Source: Escherichia coli
GTDB taxonomy: Bacteria > Pseudomonadota > Gammaproteobacteria > Enterobacterales > Enterobacteriaceae
DNA: 64,000 nucleotides
Direction: 5' to 3' (one strand)
Assembly (NCBI RefSeq): GCF_016026235.1
Contig: NZ_CP065613.1
In this document: positions 48,251 to 54,418 of the stretch, piece after piece
Layout of the letters: every line of letters starts with the position of its first letter
Position numbering within the stretch: the first letter of the stretch is position 1
Notes under the pieces: model-generated
What the model saw: only the letters and a program-made list of their open reading frames with translations
Database searches by the model: none
Told to the model about the DNA's origin: nothing
Program-made: the position numbers and the translations under genes

Positions 48251-49411
48251 ATGACAAATAACCCTCTGATTCCACAAAGCAAACTTCCACAACTTGGCAC
48301 CACTATTTTCACCCAGATGAGCGCGCTGGCGCAGCAACACCAGGCGATTAACCTGTCGCAAGGCTTTCCTGATTTTGATGGTCCGCGCTATTTACAGGAG
48401 CGGCTGGCGTACCACGTTGCCCAGGGGGCAAACCAATACGCGCCCATGACCGGCGTGCAGGTCTTGCGCGAGGCGATTGCTCAGAAAACGGAACGTTTGT
48501 ATGGCTATCAACCAGATGCCGATAGCGATATCACCGTAACGGCAGGGGCGACGGAAGCGTTATACGCGGCGATTACCGCACTGGTGCGCAATGGCGATGA
48601 AGTGATTTGTTTTGATCCCAGCTATGACAGTTACGCCCCCGCCATCGCGCTTTCTGGGGGAATAGTGAAGCGTATGGCACTGCAACCACCGCATTTTCGC
48701 GTTGACTGGCAGGAATTTGCCGCATTGTTAAGCGAGCGCACCAGACTGGTGATCCTCAACACTCCGCATAATCCCAGTGCAACTGTCTGGCAGCAGGCTG
48801 ATTTCGCCGCTTTGTGGCAGGCGATTGCCGGGCACGAGATTTTTGTCATTAGCGATGAAGTCTACGAGCACATCAACTTTTCACAACAGGGCCATGCCAG
48901 TGTGCTGGCGCATCCGCAGCTGCGTGAGCGGGCAGTGGCGGTGTCATCGTTTGGCAAGACCTATCATATGACCGGCTGGAAAGTGGGTTATTGCATAGCG
49001 CCAGCGCCCATCAGTGCCGAAATTCGCAAGGTACATCAGTATCTGACATTTTCGGTAAATACCCCGGCACAGCTGGCAATTGCGGATATGCTACGTGCAG
49101 AACCTGAGCATTATCTTGCGTTACCGGACTTTTATCGCCAGAAGCGCGATATTCTGGTGAATGCTTTAAATGAAAGCCGGCTGGAGATTTTACCGTGTGA
49201 AGGTACATACTTTTTGCTGGTGGATTACAGCGCCGTATCTACCCTGGATGATGTTGAGTTTTGCCAGTGGCTGACGCAGGAGCACGGCGTAGCGGCGATT
49301 CCGCTATCGGTGTTTTGCGCCGATCCCTTCCCTCATAAACTGATTCGTCTCTGTTTTGCCAAGAAGGAATCGACGTTGCTGGCAGCCGCTGAACGCCTGC
49401 GCCAGCTTTAG
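48251..49411 (+). CDS. ybdL: PLP-dependent aminotransferase YbdL (methionine aminotransferase)
   Basis: 386-aa ORF with the class I aminotransferase lysine region (SFGKTYHMTGWKVGY). Confidence 0.85.
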   Translation: MTNNPLIPQSKLPQLGTTIFTQMSALAQQHQAINLSQGFPDFDGPRYLQERLAYHVAQGANQYAPMTGVQVLREAIAQKTERLYGYQPDADSDITVTAGATEALYAAITALVRNGDEVICFDPSYDSYAPAIALSGGIVKRMALQPPHFRVDWQEFAALLSERTRLVILNTPHNPSATVWQQADFAALWQAIAGHEIFVISDEVYEHINFSQQGHASVLAHPQLRERAVAVSSFGKTYHMTGWKVGYCIAPAPISAEIRKVHQYLTFSVNTPAQLAIADMLRAEPEHYLALPDFYRQKRDILVNALNESRLEILPCEGTYFLLVDYSAVSTLDDVEFCQWLTQEHGVAAIPLSVFCADPFPHKLIRLCFAKKESTLLAAAERLRQL

Positions 49412-50041
49412 CTATTTAACCGTCCAGGCGCGGGAATATTGACGGTCGGCAAACAACTCTTGCAGGCCGTTAATTTGCTTCAGGCGCAGCACTTCGTCGC
49501 TGTCCATTCCCAGCTCTTTGCCAATTTTATTATCGTCCCATCCCAACTGGCTAAGTTCACGGACGATTTCCGACATGGCGGTGATTTGATGGCGTCCACG
49601 AGCGCGATTATGACGAATAGTCGCGGCGATGCGTTGATTACGCGTACCTTCCAGACAGGTCACCGGCAAATAACCTTTTAAGCGTAATTTTAATGATGAT
49701 GAGCCTTTACCAATTTCATGGCGGTGAAAACCATCCACGATTTCCAGGGCATTTTTATCCGTATGCGTGACCACAATGGGTTGGGTAAAACCATCTATTT
49801 CAATGGATTTTTTCAGCAGTTTTTTTTCGGGTGGTGCCACGTTGTTTGGGTTGTAATCATTAGGCATAAGTTGGCTGTTTTTAACCCACAGAACGCAATC
49901 CACTGGCTCTTCACGAAAGGGGCTAACCTGATGGATCGCCATGCGGATTTCATTAATCGCTTTGATGCGATCATCTTCCGGCAAGCTGGCGAGAAATTGG
50001 GTTAAATCCTGCGTTAATCGTTGTTGCATAGTATCCCCCAT
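49412..50041 (-). CDS. ybdM: ParB/Srx-fold protein YbdM with a DGFHR motif (DndB/DGQHR-like)
   Basis: 209-aa ORF containing EIVDGFHRHEIGK; its start lies 28 nt inside the 3' end of ybdN. Confidence 0.8.
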   Translation of the reverse strand: MGDTMQQRLTQDLTQFLASLPEDDRIKAINEIRMAIHQVSPFREEPVDCVLWVKNSQLMPNDYNPNNVAPPEKKLLKKSIEIDGFTQPIVVTHTDKNALEIVDGFHRHEIGKGSSSLKLRLKGYLPVTCLEGTRNQRIAATIRHNRARGRHQITAMSEIVRELSQLGWDDNKIGKELGMDSDEVLRLKQINGLQELFADRQYSRAWTVK

Positions 50042-51234
50042 TCCTGACGTTTTCCTTTTATCCGTTCGTTATAACGCTGATAGTTCTTCGCTTTCGTAGG
50101 ACTAAATGATAATGCCCGACACCAGTAATCGTTATTGAGTAAAACTTTGCATATCCGCCGCCAGGAGGGGATATCTTTCGCGCCAATGTCCCCTTGCTGG
50201 GTTTGTGGAACCTCGATGCCTTTTTTCTGATACCAGTGCAAATAAATGGCGATTTTATTGCGGTAATGCTCAGCTGTTTTCTCCGGCATGCTATTGAGCA
50301 GCAATAATGCATATTCTTGCCAGTCTAAATGTTCTGGCTTGAGGATTTTCCGATGCCCATAGAAATGATTGTCATGTCCGGCGTAAATGCCGCCACTTTT
50401 TACCCCGCTGACTCGTGCGCACATAGCAGCCCAGCGATCCGGTTCGATAACGTGATAGAGCCATAATCCTTGTCGTTGCTCCGGGCCAAAAGGTTCGCAA
50501 ATTCGCATATGACGCAGAGGAACGCCTGCCTGATACATTAGGTTATACAGTGGGTTGCAGAGACTTTGATGATTTGCATACCAGGTCCAGATATCAGCCA
50601 CTTTCCAGTCGTAAATGGGGTAAATGTACCAGCTATGACCGCCTGGTGCGGCCGTAGTCCAGGGTTTATCGTCGGCAAAACGTTGTTTATTTAAACTGGC
50701 GATGGCGACAAAACGGTTGTAGGACTCATCCGCACGGATGCCGATCATCATCGCCGCCGGACGTTTTTGTGAAAACCATTCGGCAAACTCACGTACAAAT
50801 TGTTCGAAGGTCATGCCTGGCTGGTAAAAGCAGAAAAAGTCAGGATCGGTTATCGCATCTTGCGGGGGCTGACGCACCCATTCGACATCAGGTTCCCAGC
50901 ACTGCCATTCGGGTTGGTATTGTGAAAGGGAATTTTGCGTCGTAAGCGGGAGCGCAACCCAGTAAAACTCTTCGATGACATCGGTGTACAACTCGCGCAG
51001 GGACTGAACATAGTTAATGGTGCAAGAGAATTGCGCCTCCCAGTCGATAAACAAAACGCAGATTTTTTTGCCCATTTGTCGGGCAAGTTCGGCTGTCAGA
51101 TGCAGCATTAAACCAGAGTCTTTGCCGCCAGAAAATGAGACACAAACGCGGGGTAGGGTGTTGAGTGTCCAGGTAATACGCTCTCGTGCAGCTTCCAGAA
51201 TATTGAGCGGAAGAGGAATTTTATAAATAGACAT
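50014..51234 (-). CDS. ybdN: PAPS-reductase-like PP-loop ATP pyrophosphatase-family protein YbdN
   Basis: 406-aa ORF with the PP-loop SFSGGKDS near the N-terminus. Confidence 0.8.
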   Translation of the reverse strand: MSIYKIPLPLNILEAARERITWTLNTLPRVCVSFSGGKDSGLMLHLTAELARQMGKKICVLFIDWEAQFSCTINYVQSLRELYTDVIEEFYWVALPLTTQNSLSQYQPEWQCWEPDVEWVRQPPQDAITDPDFFCFYQPGMTFEQFVREFAEWFSQKRPAAMMIGIRADESYNRFVAIASLNKQRFADDKPWTTAAPGGHSWYIYPIYDWKVADIWTWYANHQSLCNPLYNLMYQAGVPLRHMRICEPFGPEQRQGLWLYHVIEPDRWAAMCARVSGVKSGGIYAGHDNHFYGHRKILKPEHLDWQEYALLLLNSMPEKTAEHYRNKIAIYLHWYQKKGIEVPQTQQGDIGAKDIPSWRRICKVLLNNDYWCRALSFSPTKAKNYQRYNERIKGKRQEWGILCNND

Positions 51235-51380
51235 CTGAAGACGCTCTCTGAACGTTACAGGGTGAACAGTGAGATAAGACTGTTAATTATAAAGTAAACA
51301 CTGTAAAGCAGAGTGTTTTATTTTTCATTCGCGCTGTGAATAAATAGATGAAAGTTATAGTAGCTGTCTGTAGTTATATA

Positions 51381-52283
51381 TCAAAAACTCTCATTTAGAC
51401 GGTCAATAAATCGGGAGAACACCAAATTATTTAAAGAAGATTTATTATAGGAAATGTAAAGCTTTATTGAAGGTAACGGATGTTCTAGTTTTATCTCTTT
51501 TAAATTAAGAAAGTCACGGTGGGAGTTATAAAGTTCATAGGGGACTATTCCCAGTAAATCTGTAACTGCAATGCTATTAATTATTGTCAGCAAAGAGGAA
51601 CCACGAAATGAAATTTTGCGATTCATAAACTTCTCGTCTATTTCCATTTGAATATCATCAACTCCTGCTGATTTGGATATTAATTGGGTGAACTCTTCTG
51701 CCATAATTTGTTCATAAGTGCTATTGTCAGTAATTCGCGGATGCTTATTACTACAAATTAGAGTATTGCGAATTGTATGCAATGGCATGCAAATGACGGA
51801 ACGGCTGATCACTGGCATTTGGGTGATCACCAGATCGGCTTTGCGGTGAACCAACAGTTCTTCAGCATTCTCTGCTGACATGAGGATATCATGGCACTCA
51901 ATCTCGACAGAGGCATCTTGCCGTAGGCAGCGGATCAGCATACTATTATTAGAGCAAGAAATGAGCTGAGGGCCGTAGATAATAAAGTTTTTCTTTAGTT
52001 CGGACTTATTGACTATATTAATTGTTTGTTCAAGGCCTTTGAGGTTTTTCTCAAGATGGTGATGCAGATTCAACCCTGTTGTCGTCGGCGCGATACCTTT
52101 TCCTGAGCGAATGAATAAAGGGTCATTAAATTGCGCACGTAAGCGTTGTAACGACTGGCTCACGGCTGATGGGGTGATATATAGTGATTCAGCAGCTTTG
52201 CTAATGCTTAAATGCTGGTAAATACACTCAAATATGACAAGAAGATTTAAGTCGAACTTTTTCAAGTCGTAGAGATTGGCCAT
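51381..52283 (-). CDS. ybdO: LysR-type transcriptional regulator YbdO
   Basis: 300-aa ORF with an N-terminal LysR helix-turn-helix region; the coding sequence is conspicuously AT-rich. Confidence 0.8.
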   Translation of the reverse strand: MANLYDLKKFDLNLLVIFECIYQHLSISKAAESLYITPSAVSQSLQRLRAQFNDPLFIRSGKGIAPTTTGLNLHHHLEKNLKGLEQTINIVNKSELKKNFIIYGPQLISCSNNSMLIRCLRQDASVEIECHDILMSAENAEELLVHRKADLVITQMPVISRSVICMPLHTIRNTLICSNKHPRITDNSTYEQIMAEEFTQLISKSAGVDDIQMEIDEKFMNRKISFRGSSLLTIINSIAVTDLLGIVPYELYNSHRDFLNLKEIKLEHPLPSIKLYISYNKSSLNNLVFSRFIDRLNESF

Positions 52284-52492
52284 ACACTACTCCGGTTATA
52301 TTTTTCTTCCATGATATATTCACTTAATCAATGTTTTTTTGCGTATATATTTTTATTGATTATGTTTTTTTGCTTAACTCAGGATTAAGTTTTTCTAAAA
52401 TAGCACAGCCACTTAGGGCAGAGCGAGCAATTCATGCTTTTTTAGGATGGTTGAAAAGCAGAGATATAGTTCAACCATCCATGAATTACCTT

Positions 52493-53239
52493 TTATTTAT
52501 TCCCCATAATGATATTAAGCGTTTTCTGATCGGGCAACCCCACGGCCTGTTGTAACGTATTTTCCTTACTCATGTAATAGATAGCCGGCGTGACATTTGC
52601 CCCCAGATCGTCCATCAGTTTCTCATTGTCACTTAACACTTTCATTTGCTCTGTACTTACGTTTGCAGGCACGTTTAGCTTAAGCTTGCCACCAGAGGCT
52701 TCATATTGTTGCCAGGTTTTTGCGGGATCTTTGGAGGCAAGAATTGCCGCTGCTGTCGCCGGGCTTTCTGGCTTGATAACCCCAACCAACAATGTTCTTA
52801 ATTGCACTTTGCCAGAATCTACCCACGGGCGCGCCTGCTGCCAGAACTGTTTACAATATGGGCAGAACGGATCGGCGAAGACGTAGACAATGACCGGCGC
52901 ATCTTTTTTACCGTCGAGGAGCCAGTGGGATTGTTCCATCCGTTGCCACATTTCGCGTCCGGCTGGTGCGTAAATTTCTTTTTCGATAAGTGTGTTACTC
53001 AGGTTTTCACCTTTCTCGTTGTACATGTAACCAGAGATAGCGTGCTTACCATCTGGAGTCAGGTAGATGGTGACGCCCATATCCTGATACTTTCCGAGAT
53101 AACCTTTCATTCCTCCGGGGGCATCGAACGTTTTGATGATTGTAATGCCCTGTTTTTCAATCGCTTTTACTGGAGCAGGAAGTTCCTCTGCGAAGGCGAT
53201 TGCAGGAAGCAGAGCCAGTAAAAGTATCTTTTTTAACAT
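52493..53239 (-). CDS. dsbG: Periplasmic thiol:disulfide oxidoreductase DsbG
   Basis: 248-aa reading from [17 protein letters not shown] with the CPYC active site; the track ORF is 20 codons longer. Confidence 0.85.
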
Positions 53240-53610: not shown

Positions 53611-54174
53611 ATGTCCTTGATTAACACCAAAATTAAACCTTTTAAAAACCAGGCATTCAAAAACGGCGAATTCATCGAAATCACCGAAAAAGATACCGAA
53701 GGCCGCTGGAGCGTCTTCTTCTTCTACCCGGCTGACTTTACTTTCGTATGCCCGACCGAACTGGGTGACGTTGCTGACCACTACGAAGAACTGCAGAAAC
53801 TGGGCGTAGACGTATACGCAGTATCTACCGATACTCACTTCACCCACAAAGCATGGCACAGCAGCTCTGAAACCATCGCTAAAATCAAATATGCGATGAT
53901 CGGCGACCCGACTGGCGCCCTGACCCGTAACTTCGACAACATGCGTGAAGATGAAGGTCTGGCTGACCGTGCGACCTTCGTTGTTGACCCGCAGGGTATC
54001 ATCCAGGCAATCGAAGTTACCGCTGAAGGCATTGGCCGTGACGCGTCTGACCTGCTGCGTAAAATCAAAGCAGCACAGTACGTAGCTTCTCACCCAGGTG
54101 AAGTTTGCCCGGCTAAATGGAAAGAAGGTGAAGCAACTCTGGCTCCGTCTCTGGACCTGGTTGGTAAAATCTAA
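53611..54174 (+). CDS. ahpC: Alkyl hydroperoxide reductase, peroxiredoxin subunit AhpC
   Basis: 187-aa ORF with the peroxidatic region (FTFVCPTE). Confidence 0.95.
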
Positions 54175-54312
54175 ATTTCCTTCGTTTTTCACGCCATAGC
54201 GGCGTTGGCGTCGCCCGCTCACCCCGGTCACTTACTTGTGTAAGCTCCCGGGGATTCACAGGCTAGCCGCCTTGCTCTGACGCGAAATACTTCGGAAATT
54301 CACCTAATTCTT

Positions 54313-54340
54313 CGGGTGCTGCGGCACCCGATTTTCTTCC
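54313..54340 (+). terminator. Stem-loop plus U-tract in the ahpC-ahpF intergenic region (candidate partial terminator/attenuator)
   Basis: CGGGTGC-TGC-GGCACCCG followed by ATTTTCTT; a second long hairpin lies at 54221-54253. Confidence 0.35.
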
Positions 54341-54418
54341 CCGCACCATGATGCAAGCTGCATCCAGGTAGCCGTAGAGGCCGCTTGCATGATGATGTTT
54401 AAAGCCCAGGAGATAAAC

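Follow-up and report, generated by a model that had tools for sequence, protein, structure and literature searches.

Among the described proteins close to the subject of this study are DndB and DndC, and likewise SspD and BrxP, in which a protein of the ParB/sulfiredoxin (Srx) type stands beside a PP-loop ATP pyrophosphatase and action on DNA is plausible. The same holds for the ybdN-ybdM gene pair (ybdNM) of Escherichia coli, which we analysed in a stretch of 64,000 nucleotides (contig NZ_CP065613.1 of assembly GCF_016026235.1; hereafter, the window). DndC carries conserved cysteines for a [4Fe-4S] cluster and for sulfur transfer, and CysH, a phosphoadenosine phosphosulfate (PAPS) reductase, carries a C-terminal catalytic cysteine in an ECGLH-type motif. 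ParB/Spo0J, Noc and KorB are clamps, and VirB is another clamp of the ParB-CTPase type. The ParB-like NTPase DpdB works in Dpd 7-deazaguanine DNA modification (PMC12839542). According to papers citing Sandt et al. (2002), ibrAB activates prophage eib genes, and this is the sole phenotype recorded there for the IbrA/IbrB family. The original prediction for the window had described ybdNM as a DndB/DndC-type pair in an AT-rich block, possibly a minimal or degenerate nucleic-acid modification or phage-defence module.

Our results indicate that ybdN and ybdM almost certainly belong to the IbrA/IbrB family. In the window, ybdN (50014-51234, 406 aa) encodes the IbrA-family protein and ybdM (49412-50041, 209 aa) the IbrB-family protein. 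Both are read from the minus strand, as are the features within ybdN, ybdM and citR and the spacers beside citR given below, and they follow the LysR-type gene ybdO, also called citR (51381-52283, 300 aa), on that strand in the open reading frame (ORF) listing. The ORF coordinates confirmed the co-directional order and the 28-nt overlap between the 3' end of ybdN and the 5' end of ybdM (50014-50041), a candidate for translational coupling; a similarly tight juxtaposition of the two genes was found in most homologous loci. The RefSeq name of ybdM is "IbrB-like domain-containing protein" and that of ybdN "phosphoadenosine phosphosulfate reductase". The name "IbrA family prophage gene co-activator" is attached to one orthologue in the enterobacteria, and the homologous adjacent genes in phage records are annotated as IbrA and IbrB. 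Furthermore, YbdN and YbdM shared 58% (405 aa) and 56% (216 aa) identity, respectively, with an IbrAB-like pair on plasmid pSTEC719_3 along their full length. ybdNM and its family have been named and catalogued before, and the gene pair as such is not new. We found no mechanistic study in the literature on ybdN/ybdM, IbrA/IbrB, DUF3440, or a PAPS reductase combined with ParB, which supports the earlier statement that the module has no assigned biochemical function in E. coli.

Subsequently, the distribution of the pair was examined using 80 genome loci recovered by a YbdN family profile and 80 viral loci from IMG/VR. A YbdM homologue adjoined the YbdN homologue in 79 of the 80 genome loci, and the exception was a contig end. 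These loci came from Proteobacteria, Opitutales/Akkermansia (Verrucomicrobiota), Bacteroidota, Firmicutes, Mollicutes-like metagenome-assembled genomes and a Heimdallarchaeote. Both genes were adjacent in 75/80 viral contigs as well. In the phage collection, YbdN was represented by 224 records and YbdM by 226, and the main genus counts were identical for the two (Flavobacterium 90, Mycobacterium 60, Streptococcus 21, Arthrobacter 12, and Bacillus 8). Clustered at 50% identity, the family comprises 1,005 protein clusters with E up to 1e-10, and 1,685 with E up to 1e-3; across phyla, IbrB is more conserved (45-55% identity) than IbrA (30-40%). The two genes are thus an obligate module and are almost never found apart. 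The LysR neighbour accompanied the pair only in loci of Escherichia, Citrobacter, Pseudocitrobacter and Superficieibacter.

YbdN matched the Pfam family PAPS_reduct (PF01507; E = 1.2e-13) and then DUF3440 (PF11922; 5e-23). The PP-loop domain of the PAPS-reductase superfamily covers residues 30-234 (50533-51147), and the helical C-terminal DUF3440 domain residues 237-383 (50086-50526). It strongly matched the PHROG families phrog_2302 (E = 1.4e-76) and, for the C-terminus, phrog_15645 (E = 1.2e-86). The PP-loop SFSGGKDS claimed earlier is present in the translation at residues 33-40 (51115-51138). When 63 homologues of 28-50% identity were aligned, G37, K38, S40, D64, E66, W119, D214 and Y230 were invariant; S35, G36 and D39 of the PP-loop were conserved in at least 90%, as was each of G165, R167, E170 and S171 of a GIRxDES motif. 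No cysteine was invariant in this alignment. The most conserved cysteine column (89%) is alanine in YbdN and in six other members, and the columns of C246 and C362 of YbdN alternate with alanine across the family. Accordingly, a catalytic thiol of the CysH type is excluded, and so is a DndC/TtuA-type Fe-S site as a feature of the family.

In NCBIfam, YbdN scored 22.2 bits against a cut-off of 290.4 on the DndC model TIGR03183 (E = 5.5e-5, residues 145-223 only) and 24.9-34.8 bits against cut-offs of 154-254 on the CysH models. In PADLOC, it gave only marginal, domain-level matches to DndC (21.8 bits, 2e-5) and BrxP (18.5 bits, 1.2e-4). Membership of YbdN in DndC or CysH was therefore rejected on the basis of sub-threshold local matches and the lack of an invariant cysteine; being below the CysH cut-offs and devoid of the catalytic cysteine, YbdN is not CysH. 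YbdN shares SGGKDS with DndC, but the motif occurs throughout the superfamily and is not discriminating, and YbdN differs from DndC in having DUF3440 and in lacking invariant cysteines or Fe-S ligands. In the sequence-profile ranking, CysD (5e-10) and FAD synthase (6e-9) preceded CysH (2.6e-6). The AlphaFold2 (AF2) model of YbdN had a predicted local distance difference test score (pLDDT) of 91; its PP-loop domain has a fold like that of FAD synthase, CysD and CysH, and its helical DUF3440 domain had no structural match in the PDB. Sequence searches of solved structures found nothing close to either YbdN or YbdM, and profiles reached only CysD/FAD synthase and ParB/Noc, respectively. YbdN is 18-21% identical to CysD, the small subunit of ATP sulfurylase, and to the PAPS domain of eukaryotic FAD synthase; unlike these, it has the additional DUF3440 domain and a ParB-like partner, and has no link to CysN/CysC or flavin genes. 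These profiles place YbdN among the PP-loop ATP pyrophosphatases, within the PAPS-reductase superfamily, and the proteins of known structure nearest to it are two adenylyltransferases, CysD and FAD synthase. YbdN is accordingly predicted to be an adenylating enzyme, that is, one transferring the alpha-phosphate of ATP.

YbdM matched phrog_2159 (E = 3.9e-69) in PHROG and ParB_N alone in Pfam (E = 2.8e-4). Its matches to the NCBIfam models TIGR00180 (ParB; 15.8 bits against a cut-off of 58.45) and Noc (20.4 against 315) were below the thresholds, and its sole match in PADLOC was the ParB-like part of the methyltransferase model MTase_II (6.6e-4). Profile comparison also gave Noc (1e-6) and ParB (5.5e-5), and the N-domain matched the ParB-like part of phage DNA methyltransferase families (phrog_498, 1e-10). 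From ParB_N, the profiles and Foldseek, a nucleotide-binding N-domain of the ParB/Srx type was assigned to about residues 46-129 (49655-49906). In an alignment of 62 homologues (40-63% identity), 33 residues were invariant, including N61, N64-P65-N66, D103, G104, R107, R143-H-N-R-A-R-G149 and H151, and, in the C-terminal helices, G178, M179, E183, Q189, G192 and F197. The DGFHR motif described in the original prediction is present in the translation at residues 103-107 (49721-49735), where ParB has its box II GERR and Srx has GCHR. It aligns with the GERR box of Noc/ParB, whose G and last R are retained, and the NxxR motif is retained as N145-R148. At position 105, phenylalanine occurs in 50, tyrosine in 11 and valine in 1 of the 62 homologues and glutamine in none, whereas the DndB-type signature is DGQHR with glutamine; the histidine is kept in 61/62 members.

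The AF2 model of YbdM had a pLDDT of 89.5. Foldseek matched it to Noc, ParB-CDP, ParB-CTPgammaS and KorB (E = 1.7e-7 to 8e-7; 153-166 columns) over the N-domain and a helix-turn-helix (HTH) region, and sulfiredoxin and SbnI ranked below ParB/Noc/KorB. The RHNRARGxH motif and the helical HTH-like C-terminal region cover residues 134-196 (49454-49642). These models and alignments suggest that YbdM is a ParB/Noc/KorB-like protein consisting of a nucleotide-binding N-domain and an HTH-like region, with DG(F/Y)HR and RHNRARGxH as putative pocket motifs. Although the clamps were its best structural and profile matches and the GxxR and NxxR positions are kept, YbdM differs from them in lacking a GERR box and a ParA partner (no ParA gene was found near ybdM in the window), in its own invariant RHNRARGxH, and in its obligate enzymatic partner. 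It also lacks the C-terminal dimerisation domain of ParB: in the model, the protein ends at residue 209 right after the HTH-like helices. The motifs of both proteins, in which D103, G104 and R107 of YbdM and G37, K38 and S40 of YbdN are invariant, are functional signatures rather than chance resemblances. Placement of YbdM with ParB proteins and of YbdN with CysH had been named beforehand as outcomes contrary to the DndB/DndC proposal; the former was observed for YbdM, but the latter was not observed for YbdN.

The genes accompanying the pair were also compared. Over the 80 genome loci, only two non-syntenic neighbours recurred: a compact SNF2-like ATPase, in 19 loci, and a protein of 142 aa, in 12. 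A GNAT gene lay between ibrA and ibrB in one locus, and other loci were bare pairs amid ordinary chromosomal genes. The SNF2-like ATPase lies directly upstream of ibrA, often overlapping it (for example, L001:2752-3996, L048:6770-8029 and L086:1042-2211 in our numbering of loci, and 16 other genome loci); it likewise stood adjacent in 15 of the 80 viral loci and in phages of Streptococcus and Lactobacillus. This protein of approximately 415 aa has the motifs GTGKT, DESxxIKN and GTP and matched Pfam SNF2-rel_dom (E = 1.5e-5) and phrog_62, which suggests a three-gene variant of the module. Furthermore, a protein of approximately 130-145 aa, designated X, separated ibrB from ibrA in 54 of the 80 viral loci (L124:2510-2935 and L108:5601-5993, for example, within L103-L180) and in three genome loci (L019, L024 and L037), and was not present in the window. 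X has an NRIAWLGQ motif and several conserved cysteines. Neither X nor the 142-aa neighbour, which occurs in Bacteroidota, had a Pfam or PHROG match. In phages, the pair immediately precedes the large terminase gp6 in mycobacteriophage Gadjet, where it is gp4 and gp5, and in Faecalibacterium phage Taranis it precedes the small terminase. In a lambdoid-like contig it is flanked by RecT and DnaB, and in a Bacillus phage it lies beside a methyltransferase. No recurrent nuclease, cysteine desulfurase, tRNA-guanine transglycosylase (TGT) or DndD/E-like partner was found near the pair over the 80 genome loci. Among long homologues, no informative domain fusion was found, and one ABC_tran match is probably a gene-call fusion.

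In E. coli, ybdNM was present in 5422/5426 complete genomes with housekeeping flanks. The genes of a K-12-like strain and a B2 strain were 94-99% identical, with ratios of nonsynonymous to synonymous substitution (dN/dS) of 0.015 for ybdN and 0.035 for ybdM, which points to strong purifying selection. YbdN and YbdM of E. coli also retain every invariant residue of the family. Hence the module is intact and represents a distinct family, and the words "minimal or degenerate" do not describe it. The neighbouring ybdO/citR matched the NCBIfam model NF047710 (CitR) at 7.5e-140 with 465 bits against a cut-off of 400, as a LysR-type repressor of ybdNM. A CitR ChIP-exo peak was reported upstream of citR-ybdNM, and deletion of citR raised ybdN by 5.5 log2 and ybdM by 2.5 log2; cys genes also rose in the mutant (PMC9068703). 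In addition, ybdO was described as bound and repressed by H-NS, fast-evolving and horizontally transferred, with a transcription start site 107 bp upstream of the start codon (PMC4720273).

In the region of citR and its flanking spacers (51100-52600), we observed that citR occurs in E. coli as two deeply diverged alleles with 75-84% nucleotide identity (dS of approximately 2.2, dN/dS 0.03), unlike its neighbours ybdNM and dsbG, which are 94-99% identical. This divergence agrees with the published description of ybdO as fast-evolving and bound by H-NS (PMC4720273). A class of 1768 genomes with 80-90% identity was considered as a divergent ybdNM allele and was rejected, because the class arises from the two alleles of citR and not from ybdNM.

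Extra copies of the pair on islands and plasmids were also recorded in E. coli (8087 places in 5420 genomes, 116 on plasmids), and five places among roughly 2600 extra copies, including pSTEC719_3, were sampled. These accessory pairs have the same two-gene order and the same architectures as ybdNM (PAPS_reduct with DUF3440; ParB_N with an HTH-like region). They variously adjoin fimbrial operons, PapI/FaeA and PerC regulators, a DsbA-like gene, YaiO/wecB polysaccharide genes, an inverse autotransporter or a TonB receptor. On pSTEC719_3, perC directly follows the pair, and adjacency of ibrB and perC is likewise given in a transcriptome paper on Shiga toxin-producing E. coli (PMC7649339). In contrast, ybdNM is core chromosomal, lies outside islands, prophages and plasmids, adjoins no perC, papI or fimbrial gene, and has a dedicated LysR repressor, CitR. 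A fragment labelled "Escherichia phage ECO95" with a 77% match to YbdM resembled an IbrB of E. coli but was rejected, being a ybdL-ybdM-ybdN piece of another enterobacterium.

Taken together, we lean toward the reading that ybdN-ybdM is a normally silenced chromosomal copy of IbrA-IbrB in E. coli, encoding a two-protein machine that probably acts on DNA. That DNA is the site of action is the somewhat safer part of this reading, and a nucleic-acid-directed role, as put forward in the original prediction, is plausible. The link to DNA comes from the fold of YbdM, which lies on ParB/Noc/KorB, the SNF2-like neighbours, the matches to the ParB-like part of methyltransferases, and the terminase, replication and recombination context in phages. 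A regulatory theme comes from the paralogues beside PapI/FaeA, PerC, fimbrial and surface-polysaccharide genes and from the repression of ybdNM by CitR. In the mechanism that we propose, YbdM would bind DNA in a nucleotide-dependent manner and position or recruit YbdN. With ATP, YbdN would then adenylate its target; a base or phosphate of DNA is the likeliest candidate, and a small-molecule ligand or a protein is a less likely one. The adenylation might leave an adduct, or might prime a substitution by a non-sulfur nucleophile. In bacteria, the outcome would be altered expression of silenced, horizontally acquired genes, much like the reported effect of IbrAB on eib genes of prophages, whereas phages may mark their own DNA. 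Covalent modification of DNA by IbrA/IbrB is a tentative part of the proposal and is itself rather unlikely.

Several points weigh against this reading. Most loci have neither the SNF2-like ATPase nor any other DNA-handling partner, and the TM-scores of YbdM in Foldseek were modest (0.33-0.54). The HTH-like region of YbdM is near invariant across phyla, which is unlike a sequence-specific regulator and favours a common ligand, either DNA in general or IbrA; the region could instead be a surface that binds YbdN. RNA, a protein or a small molecule could also serve as the substrate of YbdN. Furthermore, the DNA of E. coli K-12 is not known to contain a modified base; since ybdNM stays silent in the laboratory, this point carries little weight in either direction.

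A bolder version of the proposal, which we regard as speculative and doubtful, is that IbrA/IbrB including ybdNM constitutes a so far unrecognised, sulfur-independent DNA modification system. In it, a ParB-like, nucleotide-gated loader would bring a cysteine-less, PP-loop adenylating enzyme to DNA, sometimes together with the SNF2-like translocase or the X protein, and the enzyme would attach a new adduct to a base or to the backbone. For phages, this would serve to mark or protect the genome, and enterobacteria would have domesticated the system as an epigenetic switch for H-NS-silenced genes.

Among the alternatives, one without any covalent change of DNA survives best, although we consider it unlikely. 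YbdM would be a transcription or anti-silencing factor, a nucleotide-dependent clamp like VirB/KorB remodelling H-NS-bound promoters, and YbdN would be an accessory protein that either produces or uses up a nucleotide ligand or modifies a protein. Activation of prophage eib genes, the sole phenotype in the papers mentioned above, is what such a factor would do. The nearness of YbdM to Noc/ParB/KorB, the paralogues beside PapI/FaeA, PerC and horizontally acquired surface-structure operons, and the AT-rich, H-NS-bound ybdO/citR next door agree with it as well. However, it leaves unexplained a conserved PP-loop enzyme that is obligatory in phages of many phyla, some of which, to our knowledge, lack H-NS. 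Nor does the near invariance of the HTH-like region across phyla resemble site-specific regulators, the dimerisation domain of ParB is lacking, and accessory partners such as the SNF2-like ATPase point to enzymology on DNA.

An RNA-directed enzyme appears distinctly less probable. In this case, YbdN would modify tRNA or rRNA bases in the manner of TilS/TtcA, and YbdM would be the subunit conferring specificity by binding nucleic acid. The TilS/TtcA type, however, ranks below the group of CysD, FAD synthase and CysH; the partner is a ParB/HTH protein, and an SNF2-type translocase of double-stranded DNA accompanies a fifth or more of the loci. Neither tRNA genes nor RNA-binding domains were noted in the neighbourhoods.

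The DndB/DndC proposal, that is, a minimal Dnd- or Dpd-like module for phosphorothioation or 7-deazaguanine modification with a role in anti-phage defence, is in our estimate very unlikely. The relationship that stood was that of superfamilies and of a coupled pair: ParB/Srx and PP-loop PAPS-reductase proteins are likewise combined in DndB/DndC, and a ParB-like ATPase is found in Dpd (PMC12839542). The weak local matches to DndC and BrxP point in the same direction, and a 2026 preprint describes candidate PANGU-like defence clusters made up of a nucleoid-associated protein, a PAPS reductase and a ParBc protein. The placement in the families themselves did not hold. For YbdM, no DndB, DGQHR or DpdB match was found at E up to 0.1 in NCBIfam, 10 in Pfam or 1 in PADLOC, and membership in these families was rejected; glutamine never occurs in its motif. 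The score of YbdN on DndC was far below the cut-off, with no invariant cysteine for Fe-S or persulfide chemistry. No dndA/IscS, DndD, DndE, dpdA-TGT, SspABC or restriction effector gene was found near the pair in the window or recurrently across the 80 loci. In Dpd, the ParB-like NTPase assists a base-altering enzyme, whereas ybdNM has no linked TGT/DpdA, DpdC or QueC-type gene. A role in phage defence found no support: neither protein matched a catalogued defence component in PADLOC-DB v2 beyond the marginal domain-level matches, the genes are core in E. coli, and the family is abundant in phage genomes, many of them from phages that we take to be virulent.

Finally, a sulfate-assimilation enzyme or phage auxiliary metabolic gene (AMG) of the CysH type, that is, a PAPS or adenosine phosphosulfate reductase, is so improbable that it can be dismissed here: the RefSeq name of ybdN, the similarity of its fold to CysH and the rise of cys genes in the citR mutant would fit it, but the scores were far below the cut-offs, the C-terminal catalytic cysteine is missing, the obligate partner is a ParB-like protein and not cys genes, and a separate cysH exists in E. 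coli.

Virome studies nevertheless count the IbrA half as a CysH sulfur-metabolism AMG and note a DUF3440 clade. The lack of an invariant cysteine in the family and its obligate ParB-like partner speak for a mis-annotation, and the label "PAPS reductase/CysH AMG" on phage IbrA genes is probably misleading. ybdN and ybdM are core E. coli genes of a family that is among the more widespread unexplained phage gene pairs (approximately 225 sequenced phages and many virome contigs). If the pair modifies DNA, or is a nucleotide-driven anti-silencer, it would represent a new principle of an enzyme plus a loader, would explain the observation on IbrAB and eib, and would give a function to the operon controlled by CitR and H-NS.

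The remaining features of the locus concern its base composition and its neighbours, which in the window are ybdL, citR, dsbG and ahpCF. The earlier description of an AT-rich block was borne out for citR (GC 0.386) and the spacers flanking it (0.32-0.34; window mean 0.523), and applied only mildly to ybdN (0.478) and ybdM (0.470). The citR-ybdN spacer (51235-51380; GC 0.34) is the presumed promoter/operator region of ybdNM, and the dsbG-citR spacer (52284-52492; GC 0.32) holds the published ybdO promoter and the H-NS upstream element. A promoter and terminator scan of 49200-52700 gave counts not above those of shuffled sequences, and in the citR-ybdN spacer the consensus promoter scan was not above chance. 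The convergent genes ybdL (plus strand) and ybdM (minus strand) finish on the adjacent bases 49411 and 49412 with zero spacer, and no terminator-like site was found between them in the same scan.

Some differences among strains were also seen elsewhere in the window. ybdR (56697-57485), encoding a zinc-dependent alcohol dehydrogenase, seems shortened here to a 262-aa ORF; the region is approximately 500 bp longer in other E. coli strains and is absent from the B2 strain examined. In the ahpC-ahpF spacer (54100-54399), a 300-bp block of the window shared only 72% identity with the B2 strain, although its flanks were at least 98% identical. The longest ORF of ahpF in the window starts at 54389 and encodes 531 aa, and the annotated gene of the B2 strain is 1566 nt.

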